From a virus: a DNA stretch of 29,961 nucleotides. Location: the UHGV virus genome UHGV-0134758; one strand, written 5' to 3'. Below the pieces are notes generated by a model, which did no database searches, was not told the origin of the DNA, and was given only the letters and a program-made list of their open reading frames with translations. The position numbers were made by a program, and so were the translations under genes. Positions 1 through 26,552 of the stretch are shown here, one piece after another. Position 1 is the first letter of the stretch. Each line of letters starts with the position of its first letter.

Positions 1-518
1 CACACACCGGCCTGCCAGCCAACAGTACCGATATTGCACCGCCAGATATTCCGGCTGGCTTCGTGGCTGTTTTTAACAGTGATGAGGCATCGTGGCATCT
101 TGTTGAAGACCATCGGGGTAAAACCGTCTATGACGTGGTTTCCGGCGACGCGTTATTTATTTCTGAACTTGGTCCGCTACCAGAGAATGTCACCTGGTTG
201 TCGCCAGCAGGGGAGTATCAGAGATGGGACGGCGTATCCTGGGTGAAGGATGAGGAAGCAGAAAAACTGTTTCGAATACGGGAAGCGGAAGAGAAAAAGG
301 CAAGGTTGATTCAGGAGGCAACAGATAACATCGCAATTCTGCAGGATGCAGTTAATCTTGAAATAGCAACAAACGAGGAAATTTCACAACTGAATTCCTG
401 GAGAAAATACAGAGTATTAGTGAGTCGAATTGACACCAGTACAGCTCCGGATATCGTATGGCCAGAGCTGATGAATCAGGGTTATGTGCGGGAGGACGAG
501 CAGATAATTTCAGACTGA
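1..518 (+). CDS. tail fibre assembly protein (Tfa / U family), 5'-truncated by window edge
   Basis: Reading frame is open from nt 3 ([20 protein letters not shown] precedes the listed 63..518 ORF, whose first codon is an internal GTG). C-terminal ...[18 protein letters not shown] resembles Mu U / e14 Tfa-type fibre chaperones (from memory). Confidence 0.8.
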
Positions 519-1045
519 AATTTAGTGATGAATGTTGAATCATCTGGAATATCATGCAATACCAATGCATGAGCACCTATTGTGACATTGTTTCCTATAC
601 GCACTTTGCCACCAAGAATGGTGGCATTACAACCAATGGTCACATTATGTCCTATAACAATATCCATATCATTAAATTCCCCGCGAAGTCCAATAGTTAC
701 TCCGGGCTTTATTGAACAATTTTCACCGATTGTGACTTTGTGACCGATGACAACGCCATTGAGATAAGATATGTCGAATCCTTTCCCTATATTTACAGTT
801 AAGGGAACGGTTACATTGTACTTGTCAAGAATGAAGCGTTCCATTTTTCCTGCAACCTTTCGCCTATATCCGCCTTTATCAAAAAGATATTTCGATATGC
901 GCCACCAAAATAAATAACGAACTCTTCTATGTTTTATTGCGCGAACAATTGCTTTTCGCCAGGAGAAAGGACGCTCGCTACCAATTACTTCATAGTGAAT
1001 ACAGTCTTTAAGTTCATTAATGGTCATATTTCTATTGTTCAGCAT
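482..1045 (-). CDS. hexapeptide-repeat (left-handed beta-helix) acetyl/acyltransferase
   Basis: Tandem hexapeptide repeats [16 protein letters not shown]...[34 protein letters not shown]. Visibly AT-rich. Its 3' end overlaps the 3' end of the convergent tfa gene by 37 nt. No clear Shine-Dalgarno before the first ATG. Confidence 0.75.
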
Positions 1046-1510: not shown

Positions 1511-1573
1511 AACATGACCGGTTGAGAAGTTACTTTGCATACCATTACCTCCTGACAACGTAGGAGGGAACTT

Positions 1574-2343: not shown

Positions 2344-2932
2344 GTATGCAACGGTCGATTTTGACCAAGTTAATGAAAAGGGGCTGAAATCCCTTATCGC
2401 GGCGATCAATAAAACCGGGGTTACGGTAATTGAGGTTGACTCCAGCAACCGAGCAACAACGAAAGATGGCGTTAAAGTTAAAACCGCAAAGCTGGTTCTT
2501 AACGACGGACAAATTCTTGCCATACAGGTAAACGATACTGGCGATATATCGTCTGTGAAACTGAATGGAAAAGCTATTCCTAACGCTCAGTCGCCGGATA
2601 TCAAGACGCTTGGTACCGTCATGGGACAGGCGGCCCGCAAAAACTCCGCAAAATTCCAGAAATCACTGATCGCCAAAGCGAAGCGTGTAGCCAATCCGGT
2701 AGACAAGAAACCGGCAGTTAAATCCAACTTTCAGCGCCTGCAAGAAGCAAAACAGCGGAATGCTCAGGTGGTTGCCGCTTATAAGTCCGCGCAGAATTCG
2801 GTGTCTTTCAATCAACAGCAGATCACTGATTTGCGGGCGAAGCTGGATAAGGAGACGGGCCGACTCAATAACGAAAAGGCACGGAATGGCGAACTCAAAC
2901 GTCGTCTTAAGCAACTGAAAGCAGGAAATTAA
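2330..2932 (+). CDS. hdf: Hdf-like protein (paralogue of a DarA segment)
   Basis: Shares blocks with the downstream 639-aa protein (AARKNSAKFQKSL vs LAEKNSAKFQRAQ, followed by a basic coiled-coil region). Start placed at the ATG at 2330 (AGG about 9 nt upstream); the track lists 2321. Confidence 0.6.
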   Translation: MTKNKYATVDFDQVNEKGLKSLIAAINKTGVTVIEVDSSNRATTKDGVKVKTAKLVLNDGQILAIQVNDTGDISSVKLNGKAIPNAQSPDIKTLGTVMGQAARKNSAKFQKSLIAKAKRVANPVDKKPAVKSNFQRLQEAKQRNAQVVAAYKSAQNSVSFNQQQITDLRAKLDKETGRLNNEKARNGELKRRLKQLKAGN

Positions 2933-2933
2933 C

Positions 2934-4853
2934 ATGGAACAGTTCAATATCAATAAAGGGGTGACGATCAAGCCTGGGCTTGACGTGCTTCCCCCGCCAG
3001 TGACTGATGATGAATATCGCGCATTAATGGCCGGTGAGGACCGCTATCTGATGACGGAATCCAACACCCTGGAGGAAATCGAGGCTACGTTCTTCTATGA
3101 CACGCCGATCCACTGGTGTGCTACGGATTTACTGGAGGCGATTAGTTCTACTCGTTTGCAGTTACACCGGACCATGCAGGCATTTGTCCGGGCATTGAAC
3201 CAGAAGCTGAATGGCACCGGAATCTCTGCGGGGAGTGATAAAACGGGGGATGTGGCCCAGAGCGGCGCGCGCGCGATCGGCGGTGCTGAAATTGGCCGGG
3301 CACGGAACGTTAACGGGCTGCCGGTCCTGCCAGCCATTATTCCGCTCAGTGATGGTCAGACTATCAGCATTCTGTTTCATAGCCCGACAGCGGAAAACCG
3401 GATCACCAATAGCGATACGCTGGTTGCTTTCCAGTTCTTACTGAATAAAAAAGACGTTACTCACACCGTTGCTCCGATGAGTGGACGTGATATGACGCTG
3501 GCGCAGGTCACCATGAAACTTGCCAACCTTGCAGAGAAAAACTCGGCAAAATTTCAGCGTGCGCAGAAGAAGAAAAAAGCCCTGGTTGATGAAATAACCC
3601 AACTACAGGCTGACAGTGACCAGAAAGAGGATGCCATGAGCGACCTCGCGGATCAGGTGGCAGCGGTAGAAGGGCAGAAGGTAGATCTGGAGCAGAAAAT
3701 TAACGCTGTTGCATCGGAAGCGGATTCTCTTTATGAAGAGAATGAGCGTTTGCAGACGGAGATTGATCAGCTCAATCGCACTGGTGGGCGCGAAACCATT
3801 GCTCCTGCGGGGATGACTGGTGGACACTCTCGCGCGATGACGGATCGCCTTGCAAGTATCAAAAATCGTATGCATATGAACGGGGAAGTGACGCTCAGTA
3901 ATGGTGCATCAATGAAGCAATTCATTGAGGACGGTGAAGGGTATATCCAGTTAACCGATTCGGATGGCAGCGTGTACATGATCAAGGCTAAATCCATACA
4001 GGGTGTGGACATGGCAGAAGCGATCGGCAAGCTGTTTAAAGCCTATAAAGCGGGTAATGTATCGGAATATCTGGTCCAACCAGAAGAACATAAACCGGAA
4101 AACGTCGAACCTGAACCAGCGGAGGATACCGGTAGCTCTTCGCCTGAACCAGAAGTCTCTGTAGGTGCATATCGATATGCCCTGCAAATGCGTCCGGCGG
4201 CCCCTGGCGCAATACCTGAAGGTAACAAAGCAATTCTGCCGCGCCCTGATGAAGGTGACCCGTATTATGAATATGCACGCTACGGCATTGCTACTTACGA
4301 TACCCCGCTTTCTGATCAGCAAATGAGTGAGTACGACCTGAAGTTATTGCCTCGCGAGGATTCTTTCGACTTCCTGGCGAAGACACTTACTAATGGTCCG
4401 TTTGGCAAATATGCACAAAAAGCTCTGGAGCTGGCCACCAGCTCACCAGACGAGTTCCGCGTAATGCTGAAGACTCAGTTTCAAAAAACTTTCCCCAATA
4501 TTGCGTTTCCGGGGGGCGCTGGCACCGAGAAAATGGTGCAGAGCATGATCAATGCATTGCAGGCCGAAGTCGGTGAGATTACTCAGCCAGAACCGGCCCC
4601 GGCACAGCCTGATGAAACGGTTAGCGAAGCAGATGCAGAGGCTAATAAAGCCATTGAATATCTCAATAACGTGATGGATATGCAAAGCACTGACATGGCG
4701 GAGATCCGTAACGCCCGGGGCAATGTCCGGGAAGCGATTGCAGCCCTTCAGGCTGCCGGACGTTTTGAGGAAAACGAAGAGCTGGTTAATGGCGCTGCTC
4801 GCCACCTGGCTGATCTGCTGGTAGCAATCCAGAAAGCGGGGGTAGCGGCATGA
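2934..4853 (+). CDS. darA: DarA-like antirestriction / internal head protein
   Basis: 639 aa, the length I recall for P1 DarA. Start 1 nt after the hdf stop with AGGAAA upstream. Central coiled-coil, acidic Pro/Glu-rich linker. Lies between hdf and two further operon genes as in the P1 dar operon. Confidence 0.75.
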   Translation: MEQFNINKGVTIKPGLDVLPPPVTDDEYRALMAGEDRYLMTESNTLEEIEATFFYDTPIHWCATDLLEAISSTRLQLHRTMQAFVRALNQKLNGTGISAGSDKTGDVAQSGARAIGGAEIGRARNVNGLPVLPAIIPLSDGQTISILFHSPTAENRITNSDTLVAFQFLLNKKDVTHTVAPMSGRDMTLAQVTMKLANLAEKNSAKFQRAQKKKKALVDEITQLQADSDQKEDAMSDLADQVAAVEGQKVDLEQKINAVASEADSLYEENERLQTEIDQLNRTGGRETIAPAGMTGGHSRAMTDRLASIKNRMHMNGEVTLSNGASMKQFIEDGEGYIQLTDSDGSVYMIKAKSIQGVDMAEAIGKLFKAYKAGNVSEYLVQPEEHKPENVEPEPAEDTGSSSPEPEVSVGAYRYALQMRPAAPGAIPEGNKAILPRPDEGDPYYEYARYGIATYDTPLSDQQMSEYDLKLLPREDSFDFLAKTLTNGPFGKYAQKALELATSSPDEFRVMLKTQFQKTFPNIAFPGGAGTEKMVQSMINALQAEVGEITQPEPAPAQPDETVSEADAEANKAIEYLNNVMDMQSTDMAEIRNARGNVREAIAALQAAGRFEENEELVNGAARHLADLLVAIQKAGVAA

Positions 4854-5215
4854 CACTATCAGCTATTGAGTTAATGGATCTCAGCGATAAGTTGGATGCT
4901 CTGATGTCCAAAGCGGCTACCGCGAGTGGCATGGAGTTGCTGGATATCAGCGATGAAATTGACCAGATCATGCAACAGATGGGGTACGGCGCGTCCGGCG
5001 GCAGTAGTGGCGAGGAAAAACAACCTTCGGTACATGATGGTGTGCCAAAACTGGTTGCTGATTTCCTGGCTGATAAATTCGTCGATCAGAGCACAGATGC
5101 ATTTATCGGTACTTTGCAGGACTTGAGTCAATATGTTGGCACATACATCGACCTGGACCAGGTTAAACAGCACACGGCGGCATGGATAGCCGCCAACATT
5201 AAAGAGGCAGCATAA
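4850..5215 (+). CDS. small acidic protein (position of P1 ddrA)
   Basis: ATGA overlap with the darA stop, indicating translational coupling; 121 aa. Positional assignment only. Confidence 0.55.
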   Translation: MTLSAIELMDLSDKLDALMSKAATASGMELLDISDEIDQIMQQMGYGASGGSSGEEKQPSVHDGVPKLVADFLADKFVDQSTDAFIGTLQDLSQYVGTYIDLDQVKQHTAAWIAANIKEAA

Positions 5216-5227
5216 GGCGTAACAGGG

Positions 5228-8221
5228 ATGAGCTTAAGCGATCAGGTGGTAATGGCCACCAGCATAGAAACGCTGATCGAGCTGCTAAAGAACCTGCCCG
5301 ATTATGGGCGGGTTTCGTATGTGGTGACAGCGAAGGGAGACGAGGTAAAAACGGCGTTTGATATCGTCGATGCCTCAGCTCTTTTGGTATCCAATACTCT
5401 GGATGGGAAAATTAATCCTGACTATCCCCAGGAACTTCAGCCGCGCGACCGGACCCGCGCATCCAGCCTTCTTCAGGTTAACCAGATATCCAAAGATTTG
5501 CGGCCTGCTCAGCTTACTGACTCCGGTTTATCCAGCCATGGCGCGCCGATAATTGGTGAGGACAATGCCGTTGAGTCAGGTAATGGGCGGACCATGGGGA
5601 TCATTAAAGCCTATCAGGACGGTAATGCGGATCGGTATCGGGAGTACCTGATTGAACATGCGACCGAATTCGGCATACGGCCTGAAAGGGTTGAATCAAT
5701 GACGGCTCCGGTACTGGTGCGCCGCCGGTTAACGAAGGTTGACCGTGTTCAGTTTGCCAAGGACTCAAATATTTCTGATCTCCAGGAAATGGCAGCCAGT
5801 GAAAAGGCTTTTGTTGATGCCGACAGCATAACTCCGGCGATGATGGCGCTGTTTAACCCGTCAGAAAGCGGAGATCTGCTTAGCCGCAGTAATGACGCGT
5901 TTATTCGCGGATTCATGACGCAAGTTGGTGCCACACAGGCGGCTGGACTTGTAACTGAAGATGGGCGACCAACACGGCAACTTGTTGACCGGATACAAAA
6001 CGCGATCTTTGCCAAGGCATATATGGATGCGCGCCTGGTAAGGATGGTTGCAGAAGAACCTGATCCGGATATGCGTAATGTTCTGACGGCGCTTAATGCG
6101 GCGGCCAATGATTTTGTCCAGATGCAGGCTTTATCAGGAGAAGCGCACAAGCAGGCTGTGACAACCATCGTTGATGGCATTGAAACAGCGGATAGCCTCG
6201 ATAAAAAGGCGCTGGCGGCATTGAAAGATGCGGTAGACCTGGTAAGGCAATCGAAGGAGTCAGGCCAACATATTACCGATGTTATTGCTCAGGGGGATAT
6301 GTTCAGCGAAACAGCCCCGGAAGTGAAAGCTCTCGCGTTGTTCATCGTCGCGAATAACCGTAGCGCGAAGCGTATGGCCACCGCCTTTAAATTGATGGCT
6401 CAACGTATCAATGATGAGTTACAGCACCAGGGCCAGGCGCTGGGGGATATGTTTGGCGGTGGCGATGTGTCGTTACAGGATATCCTTCGCCAGGTGTCTC
6501 AGGAACTGGAAAACGAAGGCATTCAAGGGATATCCGGCGGTCTTTTCGAGTCCGTTTCCGGCGGTAGTTACAACGGTGTTGCTCCATATACCAGTTTGCT
6601 ATTACATCGGGCATCCGGCATCAAAGACATTATTCATCTGATCAGGCTGCTTTCCCGCACAGATCCCCAGGATGAACAGCTTGTACAAGTGCTTGCGCAT
6701 TTTGTTCGAATGCCTGTTGCCGACGTGAAAAAATGGTGCCGATTATTCGGTATCAGCAATTCGTTACTTCGCGGCTTGTTAAATCACGCATCCTCCCTTG
6801 GGCGCGATGGCTTTGACGAGATAGCGCAGGCGATAAAAAACGGAGATATGCCACCAGCTATTGACTGGTTTTCCATTCGCCCAACCAGGGTGAAAGCATT
6901 CCTTAGCGCGGCGCATTCGGCATCACCATTGGCAGAAATGGTTCAGAGGTTGTCGCTCATATTCACAGACCATAGCGCGTTGGGTGATCTGACTCTGGAC
7001 GAGATGAAAGAAGCCTCCATTCAGTGGGCCGATCAACAAAATGAGGTTAACTCAGACTTCTTGCCAGCATTCAGGAAGGCCGTTAGTAAAGTGGATGATG
7101 CCCGTGGAATTCTGAAAGCATTTAAGGCATTGCAAAGTCGGGTTAATAAACATGTCGGTGATATCGATGGGGTAACGGCGGAAGGCAGGGATATCCTAAA
7201 AGAGCACGGCATAACGCCAGAGTTTATTGATGAGATCAGGACTGATATGCAGCGTGAGGTAGTATCGTCCCTGCAAATCGTAGCCAGAGCGTTGGCGGAT
7301 GCTAATCCGAAGAGTGCGGCCATTGTTAACCGGGTTATTGGTGATATTGAAGCATCGGAGGGCATGGGGGCGCTGAAACTTTTCCTTTCGCGAGCGTTTA
7401 ATCCTAACGGCAATATTCTCCCTGGTATTATTGGTGAGGCTAAAAAGTATGCCAGCGAAGAAGAACTTGAGCATCTTGACCAACTACTTAAGCGATTCTC
7501 ATATAACCCGCAGACACGCTGGCAAATGAATCAGCAAAGTATGGGTTCGGTCCACGAGAAAGTGTTATCTGCCATGAACAGTGCGATCGCCAACTCATCC
7601 GTATCTGAAGAAAAAGCTCTTGAGTGGGCCGACTCTTTTATCACGGAAGAAGTGGAAGAAGCCCGCGCTGGACAGAATGGTGGGATAGACCTGCGCAAGG
7701 AACTTGCTGATATTTATCGCCTGACCGGCGGTAAAATTTCGACCTTATCAAAGGTGGTTCACCACCAGGGAAGGGCATATGCAAATCTAAATGGTGTTGT
7801 TGCTGTCAATTTGAACGATGAAAATGCAAGTGCACTGTGGCACGAGCTGGGTCATCATCTTGAGTACAGTAACCCTGGTTTGTTAGAGAAAGCTAAAGTT
7901 TTTCTTAAGAAAAATATGATTGGAGATAAGCCAGCATTTATAAATACTGGTCAAAAGGGGAAAAAAGAGTGGGTTTTAACTTCATGTCTTAGTGATAGTT
8001 ATATGGGAAGAGTATACCCTGATTTTTCGGTAACACGTTCTGGAAAAATAAACTTCAAAACACCCACTATATCAAAAGCGAGAGCAACGGAAGTCTTCTC
8101 TATGGCGCTTCAGTTATATCATGATAAGGAAGCGTTGGCTGCATCGCTTATGAATGGTGACGGATTGGTCGAATTGTTGTTGGGCGTATCTCAGGAGTTA
8201 AACATTGAAAATTCACGTTGA
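5228..8221 (+). CDS. large dar-operon protein (position of P1 ddrB)
   Basis: 997-aa uninterrupted ORF with start 12 nt after the preceding stop. No catalytic motif recognised by eye. Confidence 0.7.
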   Translation: MSLSDQVVMATSIETLIELLKNLPDYGRVSYVVTAKGDEVKTAFDIVDASALLVSNTLDGKINPDYPQELQPRDRTRASSLLQVNQISKDLRPAQLTDSGLSSHGAPIIGEDNAVESGNGRTMGIIKAYQDGNADRYREYLIEHATEFGIRPERVESMTAPVLVRRRLTKVDRVQFAKDSNISDLQEMAASEKAFVDADSITPAMMALFNPSESGDLLSRSNDAFIRGFMTQVGATQAAGLVTEDGRPTRQLVDRIQNAIFAKAYMDARLVRMVAEEPDPDMRNVLTALNAAANDFVQMQALSGEAHKQAVTTIVDGIETADSLDKKALAALKDAVDLVRQSKESGQHITDVIAQGDMFSETAPEVKALALFIVANNRSAKRMATAFKLMAQRINDELQHQGQALGDMFGGGDVSLQDILRQVSQELENEGIQGISGGLFESVSGGSYNGVAPYTSLLLHRASGIKDIIHLIRLLSRTDPQDEQLVQVLAHFVRMPVADVKKWCRLFGISNSLLRGLLNHASSLGRDGFDEIAQAIKNGDMPPAIDWFSIRPTRVKAFLSAAHSASPLAEMVQRLSLIFTDHSALGDLTLDEMKEASIQWADQQNEVNSDFLPAFRKAVSKVDDARGILKAFKALQSRVNKHVGDIDGVTAEGRDILKEHGITPEFIDEIRTDMQREVVSSLQIVARALADANPKSAAIVNRVIGDIEASEGMGALKLFLSRAFNPNGNILPGIIGEAKKYASEEELEHLDQLLKRFSYNPQTRWQMNQQSMGSVHEKVLSAMNSAIANSSVSEEKALEWADSFITEEVEEARAGQNGGIDLRKELADIYRLTGGKISTLSKVVHHQGRAYANLNGVVAVNLNDENASALWHELGHHLEYSNPGLLEKAKVFLKKNMIGDKPAFINTGQKGKKEWVLTSCLSDSYMGRVYPDFSVTRSGKINFKTPTISKARATEVFSMALQLYHDKEALAASLMNGDGLVELLLGVSQELNIENSR

Positions 8222-8759
8222 AGTTCCGCCATGTCATGCGGCCATTGTTGAATACGTTGATGATGCGCCGCTGAAAATTATTTCTGGCGACATCACAGAA
8301 GACATGATAGCGAATGCTATAAATCGGGTAATTCCTGATGAAAGCCTAAAAATAGTTAATACGCTTGATGCACCTGGTGTGCATGTGCTTCTGACATTAC
8401 AGCAGGTTTGTGGATGGAACATATACTGGCCTGGTTGGGATGATGAAGAAGATCTTATTGTCAGAATTAATATTGCCACCCCATTTGGGGAAACAGCGCT
8501 TGTTGAGTATGGCGACGACGAACCGCTAAAAATTATTTCCGGTGATATTACCGAAATCATGATTGAAGAAGCGATCGCTGGTGCAAGTCCTGGAGGTTAT
8601 TTAGGGTTGGTTAACACCCTTGATGCATCTGGCGTAGAGATTCTTCGAACACTGAATTATTTTGCTGGCTGGTTTGTTGATTGGCCTGTGGTTGAGGGTG
8701 GCGATGAAGATGACGACGACGATGATTTGGATATCCATATTGCTCCGTACGTAAATTGA
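8205..8759 (+). CDS. hypothetical acidic protein with internal tandem duplication
   Basis: Two copies of an approx. 55-aa module (AAIVEYVDDAPLKIISGDITEDMIANAI... and TALVEYGDDEPLKIISGDITEIMIEEAI...), then a poly-Asp tail (DEDDDDDD). Start overlaps the preceding ORF by 17 nt. Confidence 0.55.
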   Translation: MKIHVEVPPCHAAIVEYVDDAPLKIISGDITEDMIANAINRVIPDESLKIVNTLDAPGVHVLLTLQQVCGWNIYWPGWDDEEDLIVRINIATPFGETALVEYGDDEPLKIISGDITEIMIEEAIAGASPGGYLGLVNTLDASGVEILRTLNYFAGWFVDWPVVEGGDEDDDDDDLDIHIAPYVN

Positions 8760-8764
8760 ACAAA

Positions 8765-8788
8765 CCCCGCCGATTGGCGGGGTTTGTT
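8765..8788 (+). terminator. rho-independent terminator
   Basis: ccccgcc-gatt-ggcgggg stem-loop followed by tttgtt, 6 nt after the stop at 8759. Confidence 0.7.
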
Positions 8789-9090
8789 CCTAGCGTGCCG
8801 TAAAATACTACCCTTCAGGTTTAATTGACATGGTGTTTTCAATGTTATGCTATAGATTCATTTTGCTTGCTAATTTATATCAAAATTTATTGAACCAATT
8901 GTTGAGTACATTTTAAATCAGCAACTCTTAAATTTTGCTAATTAATTAGTCAGCTATCTATCGCTGTGGTTGATATTAATGTGCTGGTGTAACGTGTTTT
9001 TATATTGTGCTGTTGTCTCTGGTTGCGATTTGGTCTTAGTGTTATTTCTTGCTCTGTTTATTAATCAATTGGTTTACAGTGATGTTTTTT

Positions 9091-9106: not shown

Positions 9107-9218
9107 AAAATATCTCGATTTTTATTTGCAAAACTTGAAACGCAAATCCAAAAACGATAAATATTTCCTCGCAGTGACTTCTTTTCTGTTGAAAAGTTCA
9201 ATCTAAAGGGCAAAAAAA

Positions 9219-10331
9219 ATGAAAAAAATTACAGTGGCACTTTCTACGGTTGCAGCATCTGTTCTGATGGCAATGTCTGCACAAGCGGCAGAAATCTATA
9301 ACAAAGACGGTAACAAACTGGATCTGTACGGCAAAGTTAATGCAGAGCATTACTTCTCTTCTTCAGCTAGTAATGACGGAGATAAAACTTATGCTCGTAT
9401 GGGTTTCAAAGGTGAAACTCAGATTAATGACCAGTTAACCGGTTTTGGTCAGTGGGAGTACGAATTTAAAGGTAACCGTACTGAAACTGAAGGTTCTGAT
9501 AAAGATAAAACTCGTCTTGCGTTTGCAGGACTTCGCTTTGGCGATTATGGTTCGCTCGACTATGGTCGCAACTACGGTGTAGCTTATGATGTTGGCGCTT
9601 GGACTGACGTTCTGCCTGAGTTTGGTGGAGATACCTGGACTCAGACTGATGTATTTATGACCCAGCGTGCTACTGGCGTGGCGACCTATCGTAACAATGA
9701 TTTCTTCGGCCTGGTTGATGGTCTGAACTTTGCTTTGCAGTATCAAGGTAAAAATGATAGTGCTTCAAAAGTGAACAACCCGAAAGGCCGCGAAGCAGTT
9801 GAATCTAATGGTGATGGTTTTGGCCTGTCAGCTACTTACGATTATGAAGGATTTGGCGTTGCTGCAACCTATGCAAAATCTGACCGTACTGATGGGCAGG
9901 TATCCTATGCTAAAAACAGTCATCTGAATGCCTCTGGTAAAACTGCTGAAGTATGGGCTACGGGCCTGAAATATGATGCAAACAACATTTATCTGGCTGC
10001 CACTTATTCTGAAACTCAGAATATGACAGTCTTCGGTGATGATCATATTGCAAACAAAGCGAAAAACTTTGAAGCTGTTGCTCAATACCAGTTCGACTTC
10101 GGCTTGCGTCCGTCCATTGCTTACCTGCACTCTCGCGGTGAAAATATTGGTGCGTTCGGTAATCAGGATCTGGTTGAATACATCGAGGTAGGCACGACCT
10201 ATTACTTCAACAAAAATATGTCCGCTTTCGTTGACTACAAGATCAACCTGATTGATGAAAGTGAATTTACCAAAGCATCTGAGGTTGCAACCGACAACAT
10301 CGTTGCTGTTGGTATGACCTACCAATTCTAA
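9219..10331 (+). CDS. general porin of the OmpC/OmpF/PhoE family (Lc/NmpC-like phage-borne porin)
   Basis: Signal peptide [23 protein letters not shown] then mature [17 protein letters not shown]; conserved blocks GFGQWEYEF and LQYQGKN; C-terminal ...VGMTYQF with terminal Phe. Strongly resembles prophage porins Lc/NmpC from memory. Confidence 0.9.
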
Positions 10332-10486
10332 TTTTGGTAGGTAAGAATATGCGGGAAGGGAGTGATGTCACTGCCCGCATATAGGTGGCACCCTCATGCC
10401 GCCTTTGAAGAGGCAATAAAATTGCCTCTTCTCAATTTAACTTCATGTTATTTATTACCCTTTTATTGATTTGAAACTCTATTGTT

Positions 10487-10513
10487 GGGGCGCTTTATTG
10501 CGCCCATTTTTTT
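10487..10513 (+). terminator. rho-independent terminator
   Basis: gggcgc-tttatt-gcgccc followed by attttttt. A second hairpin (gaagaggcaat/attgcctcttc) lies near 10403-10427. Confidence 0.5.
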
Positions 10514-10539
10514 ACGTAATCGAGCAGCTTCCAGTTCTC

Positions 10540-11028
10540 TCAAAACGGAATATCGTCGTCAAAGTCCATTGGAGGTTCGTTATTGGCGTTGCTCTGAGGT
10601 TTACCTCCACCACTGTATTGCTGGTAGTTTTGAGATTGGTTTGATTGCCCCCAGCCATTTGAGGGCTGTGAATCGTCACGGCGAGCGCCGATCATTTGTA
10701 TGGTGCCGCCCTGGCTGATGATAATTTCCGTCGTGTAACGTTCTACACCGGCGTCATCTGTCCACTTACGGGTTTTAAGTTTCCCTTCGATGTAGACCTG
10801 AGAACCTTTTCGTAAATACTCACTCGCAATTTCAGCAATTTTTCCGAACAAAATGACTTTATGCCATTCTGTTTGCTCTTTCTGTTGGCCTGTTTGCTTG
10901 TCGCGCCATGATTCATTCGTTGCGATGCTGAGTCTTCCGACCGCTCCGCCATTTGGTATATACCTGATCTCCGGGTCTTGCCCCAAGGTACCAATCAGGA
11001 TGACTTTGTTTACACCGCGTTGTGCCAC
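10540..11028 (-). CDS. ssb: single-stranded DNA-binding protein
   Basis: OB-fold N-terminus ([61 protein letters not shown]), Gly/Gln-rich linker and the acidic tail [11 protein letters not shown] start. Confidence 0.95.
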
Positions 11029-11047
11029 TTATCTTACCTAATAAAAT

Positions 11048-11064
11048 AAATTTATTAGAGCAAT
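11048..11064 (-). promoter_or_regulatory. C1-repressor operator-like 17-mer, 17/17 to ATTGCTCTAATAAATTT
   Basis: Plus strand reads aaatttattagagcaat, the reverse complement of the P1 C1 operator consensus as I recall it. Sits in the divergent ssb/lyz intergenic region. Confidence 0.55.
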
Positions 11065-11087
11065 AATGTATATCTTTGAAACGTAGC

Positions 11088-11097
11088 TAACAAGTGA
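11088..11097 (+). promoter_or_regulatory. conserved 10-mer TAACAAGTGA, candidate phage late-promoter element
   Basis: Same 10-mer on the coding strand upstream of the portal candidate (plus coordinates 14824..14833, reverse complement); near-copy GACAAGTGAC upstream of the mat-position ORF (24304..24313, reverse complement). Each is followed about 6 nt later by an A/T-rich -10-like hexamer. Confidence 0.35.
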
Positions 11098-11197
11098 TTT
11101 GCATTATCCTGTGCCTTCTAAAGGGATCGAGTCAGTCGGTATTGGCTGTGAATGGGTGTTTGTCCTGGAGCGTAAAAAATTCTCTTATGAGGTCTTT

Positions 11198-11755
11198 ATG
11201 AAGGGAAAAACAGCCGCAGGAGGCAGTGCAATTTGCGCTATCGCGATGATGATTACCATCGTGATGGATAATGGCAATGTGCGAACCAACCAGGCGGGGC
11301 TTGAGCTTATCGGAAACGCTGAAGGTTGCCGACGTGATCCATACAAGTGCCCGGCGGGTGTATGGACCGACGGGATCGGTAATACACACGGGGTAACGCC
11401 TGGCGTGCGAAAAACCGACCAGCAAATCGCCGCTGATTGGGAAAAGAATATCCTGATCGCTGAACGCTGTATTAACCAGCACTTCCGGGGCAAAGACATG
11501 CCCGATAATGCCTTCAGCGCAATGGCAAGCGCGGCATTCAATATGGGATGCAATAGTTTACGGACCTACTACAGCAAAGCGCGAGGCATGCGAGTCGAAA
11601 CGTCCATCCACAAGTGGGCGCAGAAAGGGGAATGGGTGAATATGTGTAACCATCTCCCTGATTTTGTGAACAGTAACGGCGTCCCCCTGCCCGGGTTAAA
11701 GATTCGCCGTGAAGAAGAACGCCAGCTTTGCCTGACGGGGCTTGTCAATGAATAA
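11198..11755 (+). CDS. lyz: SAR endolysin (lysozyme, T4-lysozyme/GH24-like)
   Basis: MKGKTAAGGSAICAIAMMITIV signal-anchor-release N-terminus, then catalytic block ELIGNAEGCRRDPYKCPAGVWTDGIGNTHG. 185 aa from the ATG at 11198 (GAGG upstream), near-identical to P1 Lyz from memory. The track ORF starts further upstream at 11099. Confidence 0.9.
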   Translation: MKGKTAAGGSAICAIAMMITIVMDNGNVRTNQAGLELIGNAEGCRRDPYKCPAGVWTDGIGNTHGVTPGVRKTDQQIAADWEKNILIAERCINQHFRGKDMPDNAFSAMASAAFNMGCNSLRTYYSKARGMRVETSIHKWAQKGEWVNMCNHLPDFVNSNGVPLPGLKIRREEERQLCLTGLVNE

Positions 11756-12002
11756 ACTCCGGCAGCTCCGCCGACTTTCGACAATGAAGTTATCGCTGGC
11801 GGCGATAGTTTTTGACTCGATTTTCATGGCGGTATATGTGCTCAATGAGACGTGGCCACTGGAACCGCTATTATATGCCGGGCTTCGGCTGTGCCTGACA
11901 TTTTTGAGCATGGCTGCAAGATTGATGCAGCAGAAAGAAACCGCTTCAGATTGCCCACGTCGCGCGGTGCGCAAATATATGGCACGCAGACGAAGGCGAT
12001 AA
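11742..12002 (+). CDS. small putative membrane protein overlapping the lyz 3' end
   Basis: 86 aa with two hydrophobic segments (LSLAAIVFDSIFMAVYVL, LLYAGLRLCLTFLSMAA) and an Arg-rich C-terminus. No recognisable homology; could be spurious. Confidence 0.35.
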   Translation: MSMNKLRQLRRLSTMKLSLAAIVFDSIFMAVYVLNETWPLEPLLYAGLRLCLTFLSMAARLMQQKETASDCPRRAVRKYMARRRRR

Positions 12003-12013
12003 TAGTTAACGAG

Positions 12014-12041
12014 AACCCCGGCAGCCGCCGGGGTTATTTTG
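12014..12041. terminator. terminator hairpin between convergent genes
   Basis: aaccccggc-agcc-gccggggtt followed by attttgggtgg on the plus strand; lies between the 86-aa ORF stop and the stop of the minus-strand protease candidate. Confidence 0.55.
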
Positions 12042-12046
12042 GGTGG

Positions 12047-14777
<2,731 letters not shown>

Positions 14778-22382: not shown

Positions 22383-23423
22383 GTGTTAGTTAAATATATA
22401 GGCGAGAGTTATATGGATAAACCTTGGCCGGGCATGCACATTAGAACATCTTGTCTGGAGGATGGTTTCTTTAGAGCAACGCAACCAAAGTATCTTAATG
22501 ATCCGTCGAGTGAGTCGCGACTTCTTCCATTTTTTAATAAATTTTCACCAGCCGATTACGCATGGGCTAGAAATGAATTTAAGAAAATGCAACGAGATCC
22601 ATCTTATGTCCCATCTATACAAGAGTTAGAGTATTATTTAAAACCTTGCGGGAAACGATACGGAGAGGATTTTCCACACTTGTTAATCAATGAAGGTTTT
22701 ACCTCAATGGATTCATATGATGAATCTAAACTCCAAGAAATAGTAACGTACCTTAACGATTATTTAGTAGAAGCCGTAAGCTGTCATCTTGGTGTGTTCT
22801 CTCTATCAAAAAGTGATTGCAATCTACACATGTGGACTCATTATGCATCGATAGGAAAGGGGTTTGCTGTAGTTTTCGATGAAACACACGATTTTTTCAA
22901 AATATATCGGCCGTGTGATGTTAGTTATAATCCAGAAGATAGAGCATCTGTAACCTATTATAAAGGCGCTGTGCGATTTAATGGCTATCCTGCGCCATCG
23001 AGGAATATAGATATAAAGAATAAAGATAATACATTGCATGGGATCTTAAATCGAGATTCAGTTCGCGAGCTTTTTATTAATAGGCTTCTTTATACAAAAG
23101 GTGAAGAGTGGCTTCCTGAAAATGAAAGTAGAATTATTTTTCCATTGGCTGATTGCGAGAGAAAAATAGGAAGTATTGTCTCTCCATCGATTGATGACTG
23201 CCTATTAAATGAGTATCCTGATGTTTTTCATGACTATCATGAAATTAACTTAAAGAAAATTCCTTTTTCTGCATTCAAGCAAATTACCTTAGGGTATAAC
23301 ATGACTGAAAAAGATAAAAATATAATTTTAGATAAAGTTAGTTCGAATAAAGAATTGTCTCACGTCAACGTATTACATTCAAAACTTGATATATACGGAA
23401 AGGTTGTGGTTAAGCCCATGTAA
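22383..23423 (+). CDS. DUF2971-like protein of unknown function; candidate single-gene anti-phage defence / abortive-infection cargo
   Basis: Markedly AT-rich 346-codon ORF (alternative ATG at 22413). Motifs FRATQPKYLNDPSSE and CNLHMWTHYASIGKGFAVVFD resemble the two DUF2971 signature blocks as I recall them. Isolated between the lxc-position ORF and the convergent mat-position ORF. Confidence 0.7.
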   Translation: MLVKYIGESYMDKPWPGMHIRTSCLEDGFFRATQPKYLNDPSSESRLLPFFNKFSPADYAWARNEFKKMQRDPSYVPSIQELEYYLKPCGKRYGEDFPHLLINEGFTSMDSYDESKLQEIVTYLNDYLVEAVSCHLGVFSLSKSDCNLHMWTHYASIGKGFAVVFDETHDFFKIYRPCDVSYNPEDRASVTYYKGAVRFNGYPAPSRNIDIKNKDNTLHGILNRDSVRELFINRLLYTKGEEWLPENESRIIFPLADCERKIGSIVSPSIDDCLLNEYPDVFHDYHEINLKKIPFSAFKQITLGYNMTEKDKNIILDKVSSNKELSHVNVLHSKLDIYGKVVVKPM

Positions 23424-25520: not shown

Positions 25521-26552
25521 CTAATCGCCATCTTCCAGCAGGCGCACCATTGCCCCTGTTTCACTATCCAGGTTACGGATATAGTTCATGACAATATTTA
25601 CATTGGTCCAGCCACCAGCTTGCATGATCTCCGGTATTGAAACTCCGGCGCGGGCCATATCTCGCGCGGCTCCGACACGGGCACTATGTCCAGACCAGGC
25701 CAGGTATCTCTGACCAGAGTCATCCTTAGCGCCGTAAATCAATCGATGAGTTGCTTCAAAAATCCCTTCCAGGGCGCGAGTTGATAGCTGGCTGGTGGAT
25801 GATGGCGAGGCAACACCATTTTTTCTGACCCGGCAAAACAAGTAGTTATTAGGATCATCAGCCACACCAGAGACGGAAATCCATCGGTCGACCAGTTTAG
25901 TTACCCCCAGGCTAAGTGCCTTCTCTACACCTGCGGTGCTAACCAGCGTTTTCGTTCTGCCAATATGGATTAACATTCTCCCACCGTCAGTACGTGAGAT
26001 ATCTTTAACCCTGATCCTGGCAATTTCGGCTATACGTAACAGGGTGTTATAAGCAATCCCCAGAAATGCCAGATTACGTACATCCTGGCAGCGATCGCTA
26101 TTTTCCATGAGTGAACGAACCTGGTCGAAATCAGTGCGTTCGAACGCTAGTGCCTGTTTTGCACGTTCACCGGCATCAACGTTTTCTTTTCGGATCCGCC
26201 GCATGACCAGTGAAACAGCATTGCTGTCACTTGGTCGTGGCAGCCCGGACCGACGATGAAGCATGTTTAGCTGGCCCAAATGTTGCTGGATAGTTTTTAC
26301 TGCCAGACCGCGCGCCTGAAGATATAGAAGATAATCGCGAACATCTTCAGGTTCTGCGGGAAACCATTTCCGGTTGTTCAACTTGCACCATGCCGCCCAT
26401 GACCGGCAAACGGACAGAAGCATTTTCCAGGTATGCTCAGAAAAAGCCTGGCGATCCCTGAACATATCCATCAGGTTCTTGCGAACCTCATCACTCGTTG
26501 CATCGACCGGCAATGCAGGCAAATTTTGGTGTACGGTCAGTAAATTGGACAT
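25521..26552 (-). CDS. cre: Cre tyrosine site-specific recombinase
   Basis: 343 aa, MSNLLTVHQNLPALPVDATSDEVRKNLMDMFRDRQAFSEHTWKMLLSVCRSWAAWCKLNNRKWFPAEPEDVRDYLLYLQARGLAVKTIQQHL...MVRLLEDGD. Essentially the P1 Cre sequence as I know it, with the cognate loxP about 420 bp upstream. Confidence 0.97.
   Translation of the reverse strand: MSNLLTVHQNLPALPVDATSDEVRKNLMDMFRDRQAFSEHTWKMLLSVCRSWAAWCKLNNRKWFPAEPEDVRDYLLYLQARGLAVKTIQQHLGQLNMLHRRSGLPRPSDSNAVSLVMRRIRKENVDAGERAKQALAFERTDFDQVRSLMENSDRCQDVRNLAFLGIAYNTLLRIAEIARIRVKDISRTDGGRMLIHIGRTKTLVSTAGVEKALSLGVTKLVDRWISVSGVADDPNNYLFCRVRKNGVASPSSTSQLSTRALEGIFEATHRLIYGAKDDSGQRYLAWSGHSARVGAARDMARAGVSIPEIMQAGGWTNVNIVMNYIRNLDSETGAMVRLLEDGD

Follow-up and report, generated by a model that had tools for sequence, protein, structure and literature searches.

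A tandem-doubled relative of phage P1 Hxr at the end of the darA operon and its possible link to DdrB

The virus genome UHGV-0134758, a stretch of 29,961 nucleotides (nt) that is called the window below, contains a gene for a small acidic protein directly downstream of ddrB. The product is almost certainly a tandem-doubled member of the protein family that is named Hxr in phage P1 and OdaA in phage P7, encoded by the terminal, coupled gene of the late darA anti-restriction operon in a P7-like phage-plasmid. It is composed of two alpha+beta cores of ~77 amino acids (aa) without a solved counterpart, which are connected by an 8-aa linker and followed by a predicted disordered tail of ~23 aa with a hydrophobic tip. 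The gene, referred to as hxr throughout, is rare in its doubled form and appears to travel together with the 3′ end of ddrB. Its product might act as a partner of DdrB.

Two copies of one module in a single protein

The open reading frame (ORF) at 8205-8759 on the plus strand was present as it had been described in a previous sequence-only reading of the window, with 184 codons plus a stop codon, and it begins with TTG. Alignment of the two halves of the protein with BLASTP paired residues 1-76 with residues 86-161 without a gap, and 40 of the 76 positions were identical (53%, E=1e-25). The family profile matched the ORF twice, at aa 3-84 (9e-34) and at aa 88-185 (1e-38), and PHROG 2292, a family of unknown function with a profile length of 105, also matched in two stretches (E=1.3e-53). 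The tandem internal duplication proposed in the sequence-only reading was therefore confirmed by the self-alignment and the two profile matches, but the repeated unit comprises about 76-85 aa and not ~55 residues. Reuse of the module elsewhere, e.g., inside the Dar proteins, was not found, as the family profile had no other match among all six-frame ORFs of the window.

Both modules contain the block DD-PLKIISGDITE-MI. This block had been recognized before, but the regular expression given for it was off by one residue in the second copy. At the DNA level, the two copies are 59% identical (38% at third positions), the synonymous sites between them are saturated (dS, synonymous divergence), and a DNA repeat search did not recover the module repeat. 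The saturation and the low DNA identity show that the duplication is old, in agreement with the earlier view that the nucleotide repeat is diverged.

The strongly acidic character of the protein was also verified: 37 aspartate or glutamate residues (D/E) face only 7 lysine or arginine residues (K/R), resulting in a net charge of about -30 and an isoelectric point (pI) of 4.05. The run DEDDDDDD had been taken for the C-terminal end, but 10 further residues, LDIHIAPYVN, follow it. The tail of the protein has 23 aa with 10 D/E and no K/R and ends with YVN. Tails across the family have 20-25 aa with 8-14 D/E, are likewise free of K/R, and end with a hydrophobic residue, V, and N or Y, and the cores across the family have net charges of -3 to -10.

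The invariant residues of the family are, in the numbering of the C-module, L63, W72, W76, and P77; near-invariant residues are P9, G50, V52-N53, and R64. The C-module has retained all of the conserved family residues. The N-module has kept the P, the VN, the L, the W, and the WP, but it has a K instead of G50 and an L instead of R64. These same two near-invariant positions are replaced in the known N-modules, G by K or R, and R by L within VLR[ST]L.

Predicted structure

The structure of the full protein was predicted with AlphaFold2 using an alignment of 20 sequences, and the model had a mean predicted local distance difference test (pLDDT) value of 78 and a predicted template modelling (pTM) score of 0.58. 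Prediction of the C-module alone, with 22 aligned sequences, yielded a mean pLDDT of 83, about 93 over the core, and a pTM of 0.70. The modelled topology of the module is beta-beta-beta-alpha-loop-alpha-beta. In the N-module, strands were predicted at residues 2-7, 11-16, and 24-28, helices at 32-39 and 58-67, and a further strand at 72-74. The acidic tail was modelled with a pLDDT below 50 and is thus predicted to be disordered. The densest acidic run of the protein lies within this low-confidence segment, next to cores with only moderate charge.

Several searches were performed with the model and the sequence. Foldseek against BFVD gave nothing at E<=0.001, and a profile search of the PDB sequences gave chance matches only (E>=0.14). 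Pfam, NCBIfam, and PADLOC returned nothing for the window protein, and Pfam and NCBIfam nothing for P1 Hxr. The sequence-only reading had named a conventional enzyme fold as an observation that would speak against it, and none emerged from the fold and profile searches. The predicted core would therefore represent an orphan alpha+beta fold, as no known DNA mimic, enzyme, or helix-turn-helix (HTH) fold was recovered. With an orphan-fold core and an acidic tail with a conserved tip, the architecture of the family is now defined, and the doubled form is a natural single-chain construct that would be useful in structural work.

Distribution and origin of the doubled form

The family has already been named (hxr/odaA; PHROG 2292), but it has remained uncharacterised and mis-annotated, and the doubled locus is a rare variant of it. 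The gene is annotated as hxr in P1, with the note 'possible repressor; homolog of Xre', and as odaA in P7. With tblastn, a single homologous module was found in 20 records of deposited phages, always directly after ddrB. When 1.84 billion representative proteins were scanned exhaustively with HMMER, 12 clusters emerged, and a profile search of 5.8 billion proteins retrieved 24 clusters of 44-105 aa, all of which have a single module and some of which are fragments. The single-module gene is also present in 504 plasmids of PLSDB and at 23 IMG/VR loci. Scans of GTDB genomes with the protein or a close alignment recovered nothing, as their candidate lists were saturated with poly-Asp patterns. 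Altogether, a single module of ~100 aa, in each case in overlap with the ddrB stop codon, was found at ~550 other loci and the doubled form at 3 loci. The usual architecture is one module in ~95-105 aa, from which the window protein departs with two modules in 184 aa. P1 has long served as a model phage and workhorse, clinical Enterobacterales commonly carry P1-like phage-plasmids, and with ~500 PLSDB plasmids that carry hxr the family is of broader relevance.

A protein identical to the product of the window ORF is on record (P0001). The sole other doubled protein that was found, P0002, has 187 aa, is 77% identical, and stems from two Logan runs; its locus, L004, has the same synteny and the same 17-nt overlap with ddrB. 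Frame, Shine-Dalgarno (SD) motif, and start codon are intact in these two doubled lineages, which are 22% diverged in nucleotides. Absence or disruption of the ORF in close relatives had been named as a finding that would count against the earlier description, but the ORF was intact and syntenic in the relatives. Comparison with the L004 ortholog gave a ratio of nonsynonymous to synonymous divergence (dN/dS) of 0.15 for the whole gene; the N-module alone had a value of 0.14 and the C-module one of 0.16, with dS values of 0.57-1.28. By this measure, both modules appear to be under purifying selection, and the earlier notion that the duplication is functional gained support from the low values for both modules against the only other doubled ortholog.

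P1 Hxr (YP_006490, 102 aa) and P7 OdaA (YP_009914498, 101 aa) are the closest known relatives. They are 60-63% identical to the C-module and 44-47% identical to the N-module, they are likewise encoded by the last gene of the darA operon with an overlap with the ddrB stop codon, and they share the tail tip and the predicted core fold. In contrast, the window protein has two modules per chain, the first of which has no full tail and carries the G to K and R to L replacements, and its gene belongs to another deeply diverged allele class that includes the C-terminus of DdrB.

In a tree of the modules, the two N-modules grouped together, inside the P1 clade and with its one-residue insertion before the GW motif, and the C-modules grouped with P1 Hxr (60-65% identity). 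The doubled gene thus likely arose by in-frame tandem duplication of a P1-type single-module gene. To judge from the sequences, the upstream copy then probably diverged faster, kept an 8-aa remnant of its tail, lost two conserved residues, and stayed under selection.

A further variant was observed in a third sample (Logan SRR4294974). The protein P0018 (100 aa, locus L006, 2024-2326) has residues 1-20 of the N-module joined to a C-module at the shared PLKIISGD block, as would be expected if recombination between the repeats had collapsed a doubled gene. At this locus, only ~108 nt of ddrB are left upstream, beside unrelated DNA with dinI.

Operon setting and translational coupling

The genes upstream of hxr encode Hdf, DarA, DdrA, and DdrB, with the Pfam domains DarA_N, DarA_C, and ddrB-ParB. 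The late promoter LPdar at 1527-1545 is identical base for base to the annotated LPdar of P1. At the other end, a GC-rich hairpin with a 14-bp stem starts at the hxr stop codon. It was found by direct folding (a consensus terminator scan made no call at 8758..8789) and is likely to be the terminator of the darA operon. Promoter and hairpin together make hxr the terminal gene of a late operon with the order lydA-lydB-hdf-darA-ddrA-ddrB-hxr. The sequence-only reading had put the ORF after the dar operon; the link to this operon is real, but the gene is its last member. The only Rfam match was below threshold and fell on the terminator hairpin (28 bits compared with a gathering score of 114). At L004, a hairpin occupies the same place (~7311-7340) with other stem bases, CCCCGCC/GGCGGGG compared with TCCCGCC/GGCGGGA in the window; it lies between the convergent genes hxr and ssb and may be a bidirectional terminator.

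The start of hxr overlaps the stop codon of ddrB (8219-8221) by 17 nt, and an AGGAG motif is located at 8193-8197, within the 3′ end of ddrB, with a spacing of 7 nt to the TTG. In an alignment of six loci, the start column contains ATG in P1, P7, and JK004, GTG in L007, and TTG in the window and in L004, and AGGAG precedes it in all six. The conserved motif and the aligned start codons support the TTG as the start codon. The overlap is 10-17 nt long across P1, P7, JK004, L004, L007, and L010, and distant members of ~30% identity, from metagenomes and a Rosenbergiella phage-plasmid (L007, L010), also overlap the ddrB stop codon. Judged by this conserved arrangement, hxr is predicted to be translationally coupled to ddrB.

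Two other interpretations of the region were rejected. A programmed frameshift that would generate a DdrB-Hxr fusion does not fit, because hxr is in the +1 frame without a slippery motif, P1 and the window do not have the same sequence in the overlap, and SD motif and start codon are conserved instead. A 108-aa ORF on the reverse strand (8234..8560) was regarded as merely shadowing the coding frame.

The N-terminus of DdrB carries a ParB-like domain, and its C-terminal part is a metallopeptidase that is thought to process DdrB before packaging (PMC5512222). Hdf, DarA, DdrA, DdrB, DarB, and Ulx count among the head proteins (PMC9024508, PMC12810830). Hxr is absent from the main text of the study that reported 27 proteins of the P1 virion using LC-MS/MS (PMC9024508). 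This negative is weak, because the sequence of P1 Hxr allows for only about one peptide that would be usable after trypsin digestion. Knock-down of P1 hxr by CRISPR interference resulted in no plaque phenotype (PMC10695390). The coordinates of the operon elements and of the parts of the gene are summarized in Table 1.

Table 1. Features of the ddrB-hxr region and of the operon ends in the window
Feature	Position	Strand	Basis
LPdar late promoter, -22 box AAGTTACTT, -10 TACCAT; drives lydA-lydB-hdf-darA-ddrA-ddrB-hxr	1527..1545	+	identity to P1 LPdar
ddrB, 997 aa; ddrB-ParB domain N-terminal, HExxH at aa 872-876	5228..8221	+	
Hypervariable ddrB 3′ end, aa 890-997 (last ~108 codons), upstream half of the putative cassette	7895..8221	+	
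Deeply diverged, putatively recombining cassette: ddrB tail, doubled hxr, and intergenic DNA	7895..9085	.	P7 comparison
Shine-Dalgarno motif AGGAG, inside the ddrB end	8193..8197	+	conserved column in P1, P7, JK004, L004, L007
Doubled Hxr/OdaA-family coding sequence, 184 aa + stop, TTG start	8205..8759	+	profile, self-alignment, dN/dS 0.15 against L004
N-module core, aa 1-76, diverged copy	8205..8432	+	alignment, profile, AlphaFold2
Acidic linker GWDDEEDL, aa 77-84, probable remnant of the tail of the first copy	8433..8456	+	
C-module core, aa 85-161, closest to P1 Hxr (~60% identity)	8457..8687	+	
K/R-free acidic tail VVEGGDEDDDDDDLDIHIAPYVN, pLDDT <50, hydrophobic-V-N/Y tip	8688..8756	+	
GC-rich hairpin with a 14-bp stem, from the stop codon onwards; likely operon terminator	8758..8789	+	folding dG -27.8 kcal/mol, z -6.2

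A diverged cassette of the ddrB tail and hxr

The proteins encoded on both sides of hxr are very similar to those of P7, with identities of 98.6% for DarA, 97.5% for DdrA, 95.2% for DdrB, 95.7% for the porin, and 92.6% for SSB, whereas the N-module and the C-module of Hxr are only 44% and 63% identical to their P7 counterpart. The nucleotide sequences show the same contrast: in 2700-7800 and 9200-12500, 92-100% of positions (mostly 95-99%) are identical to P7, compared with 71-79% or unalignable sequence over ~7800-9085. At synonymous sites, the divergence of the ddrB tail, of hxr, and of the intergenic DNA exceeds that of the remaining P7-like backbone more than 10-fold.

A three-way alignment of ddrB from the window, L004, and P7 showed near identity up to codon ~889, about 15 codons past the HExxH motif. 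At this point, which marks a sharp recombination boundary relative to P7, the P7 sequence departs abruptly; L004 diverges from about codon 834. The dS value for aa 1-833 of DdrB was 0.07-0.09. For aa 890-992, it was 1.2 between the window and L004 and saturated between either of them and P7, with a dN/dS of ~0.09. The dS of hxr, 0.92, is similar. The matching high values indicate that this part of DdrB and hxr have a shared history that is older than that of the rest of the operon. The stretch with the highest variability, aa 890-955, has a basic composition in each of the three alleles (pI ~10, 12-14 K/R of 66 residues).

The allele types are also associated. The P1-type DdrB tail occurs with the single-module Hxr in ~480 plasmids, and the window-type tail occurs with the doubled Hxr at 3 of 3 loci. 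The same 20 phage records that carry Hxr also carry a full-length match to the C-terminal 400 aa of DdrB, and among the plasmids 504 have Hxr and 506 have the DdrB tail. A large-database search with the DdrB tail returned fragments only, and all 5,426 complete E. coli genomes that were searched lacked the cassette. From these comparisons, the C-terminal lobe of DdrB and hxr appear to move together between near-identical backbones as an exchangeable cassette, although the co-variation of the two rests on three alleles. Within an operon that is near-identical elsewhere, they are the one site of deep polymorphism, which offers a handle on DdrB processing or on Dar specificity.

A distant relative of the C-terminal metallopeptidase region of DdrB (25-28% identity) was observed in ~64 large Vibrio phages of 145-163 kb, e.g., OZ195916, MW824375, and OK428602.

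A possible partner of DdrB

We give a probability of roughly one in three to the reading that Hxr is the cognate partner of the C-terminal lobe of the DdrB metallopeptidase, be it as a regulator, a chaperone, or an immunity-like inhibitor. The late promoter, the coupled start, the strict co-occurrence, the shared cassette, and the purifying selection were counted in its favour. Under this reading, Hxr would be made alongside DdrB through coupled translation and would bind the C-terminal lobe of the metallopeptidase, and its acidic tail might dock on the basic, hypervariable residues 890-955. Its action would fall within the producing cell, while DdrB is being processed and packaged, and would not be aimed directly at restriction enzymes. 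The doubled protein could then be a single-chain dimer that has a single tail and in which one of the sites has degenerated.

Known systems offer parallels. CdiA-CT/CdiI is a cassette of a C-terminal toxin domain (toxin-CT) and its immunity protein, and barnase-barstar is an enzyme-inhibitor pair. As in such cassettes, a variable C-terminal segment and a small acidic ORF downstream are co-inherited behind a sharp boundary in a conserved gene. The small ORF lies directly downstream of the enzyme gene and is predicted to be co-translated with it, and the co-variation begins behind the boundary at codon ~889 (three alleles). Unlike in those cassettes, the variable part is only the lobe of the metallopeptidase behind the HExxH motif, and three alleles were seen. 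The tail has a parallel as well. E. coli SSB (...DDDIPF) and T7 gp2.5 tether partners through an acidic C-terminal tail whose tip is hydrophobic, and they share with Hxr a flexible, K/R-free, D/E-rich segment with a hydrophobic C-terminal motif, which is [IV]-V-N/Y in Hxr. This analogy suggests that the Hxr tail may be a docking peptide; however, the Hxr core is not an oligonucleotide/oligosaccharide-binding (OB) fold, and the resemblance is one of architecture only. Polyvalent proteins have been compared with polymorphic toxin systems before (PMC5512222).

Several points weigh against a DdrB partner. Shared recombination breakpoints are possible without functional coupling, and the pattern is defined by three alleles. 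The missing plaque phenotype after knock-down of P1 hxr is uninformative on DdrB regulation, but it offers no support either (PMC10695390). The collapsed hxr of L006 next to ~108 nt of ddrB indicates that hxr can persist without DdrB, perhaps as debris. The charge complementarity between the tail and DdrB is a weak argument, and the idea of a single-chain dimer rests on the AlphaFold2 model, in which the geometry between the modules is uncertain (pTM 0.58).

A more far-reaching version, which we consider unlikely at present, is that the last ~108 residues of DdrB co-evolve with Hxr and that the two proteins together form an exchangeable cassette for the specificity of the P1 Dar system, with Hxr contributing an orphan fold with a docking tail. 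If this were true, the host defences or the cargo (DarB/DdrB processing) that the system handles would be tuned by the alleles, the single-chain 'dimer' among them.

Alternative explanations

The sequence-only reading had suggested that the protein may be a DNA mimic, for example an anti-restriction or anti-defence protein. With its poly-Asp tail and acidic cores, such an effector would occupy the DNA-binding groove of type I restriction-modification (R-M) enzymes or of other host nucleases. The doubling would then extend the mimic, and an arms race would explain the hypervariability. The net charge and the low pI, the position of the gene within the Dar operon, and the lack of an enzyme fold in the searches are all compatible with this function, and so is the divergence of the locus, which is far stronger than that of its neighbours and is a frequent trait of anti-defence loci. 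In addition, disordered acidic tails can mimic DNA, with T7 gp2.5 and HMGB1 as precedents. However, the main acidic block lies in the low-confidence tail and is conserved in composition only, which does not indicate a rigid surface, and the cores are only moderately acidic. The divergence is old and allelic, under purifying selection (dN/dS 0.09-0.16) and without detectable positive selection. The classic mimics T7 Ocr, ArdA, and T4 Arn are, like Hxr, small and very acidic phage or plasmid proteins that are encoded with anti-restriction genes, but no sequence or fold similarity to them was found; the charge of Hxr seems to be concentrated in the low-confidence tail and not in a rigid phosphate-like array, and hxr expression is late and not immediate-early. 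The late promoter and the lack of a mention among the 27 virion proteins (PMC9024508) also imply that Hxr may be absent when the DNA enters, although the latter is a weak negative. Overall, a DNA mimic seems improbable, though not far-fetched.

It is rather doubtful that Hxr is a packaged internal head protein, as a minor component of the virion, or a scaffold-like assembly factor that escorts DdrB and DarB into the procapsid, with the acidic tail as an element that repels capsid or DNA and is ejected with the DNA. This would fit with the late expression coupled to ddrB and with Hdf, DarA, DdrA, and DdrB being head proteins that are incorporated in order (PMC9024508, PMC12810830). Yet Hxr goes unmentioned in the virion study (PMC9024508), and a head function leaves unexplained why only Hxr and the DdrB tail are hypervariable.

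A decaying or neutral passenger ORF, with the duplication as a slippage accident, is very unlikely. The rarity of the doubled form (3 compared with ~550 single-module loci), the collapsed chimera P0018 at L006, the loss of two conserved residues in the N-module, and the non-essentiality of P1 hxr (PMC10695390) could be understood in this way. They are outweighed by the dN/dS of 0.14-0.16 on both modules at dS 0.57-1.28, by the intact frame, SD motif, and start codon in two lineages that are 22% diverged, and by the confident folding of both modules by AlphaFold2.

The annotation of the P1 protein as an Xre-like transcriptional repressor is almost certainly wrong, as it has in its favour only a note in the P1 record on 28% identity over ~60 aa to a phage Xre, and it failed on every property that can be tested computationally: profile (no HTH or Xre match in Pfam at E<=1 for the window protein, P1 Hxr, or any of 22 family members), fold (two helices next to three or four beta strands in the predicted core, in contrast to an all-alpha HTH fold of five helices), and charge (pI 4.05 and a poly-Asp tail). 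Hxr thus resembles the Xre/HTH_3 repressors by database label only and differs from them in the missing HTH, the alpha+beta fold, and the acidic pI. The label 'putative repressor Hxr/homolog of Xre' has spread through many records (e.g., NC_005856 24244-24552, SJ46, RCS47, and pSCKP83), and its rejection removes a misleading 'Xre-like repressor' from the seventh gene of the Dar-encoding operon.

Neighbouring genes

Between hxr and ssb, the window has a gene for an OmpC/NmpC-type porin at 9219-10331 (Porin_1, E=5e-148), which is 95.7% identical to NmpC of P7. At the corresponding site, P1 has IS1 together with isaA/isaB; L004 lacks the porin gene, and hxr abuts ssb.

A gene for a DUF2971 protein is located at 22383-23423 (+), downstream of darB/ulx and upstream of a gene for a Cre-like integrase at 25521-26552 (-). 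On the P1 map, this interval contains the res/mod genes of the type III R-M system of P1, and in the window a defence or cargo locus may have been swapped in. An ORF at 482-1045 (-), immediately upstream of the LPdar/lydA region, encodes a hexapeptide-repeat acetyltransferase (Hexapep, E=6.5e-13) and may be a cargo gene.

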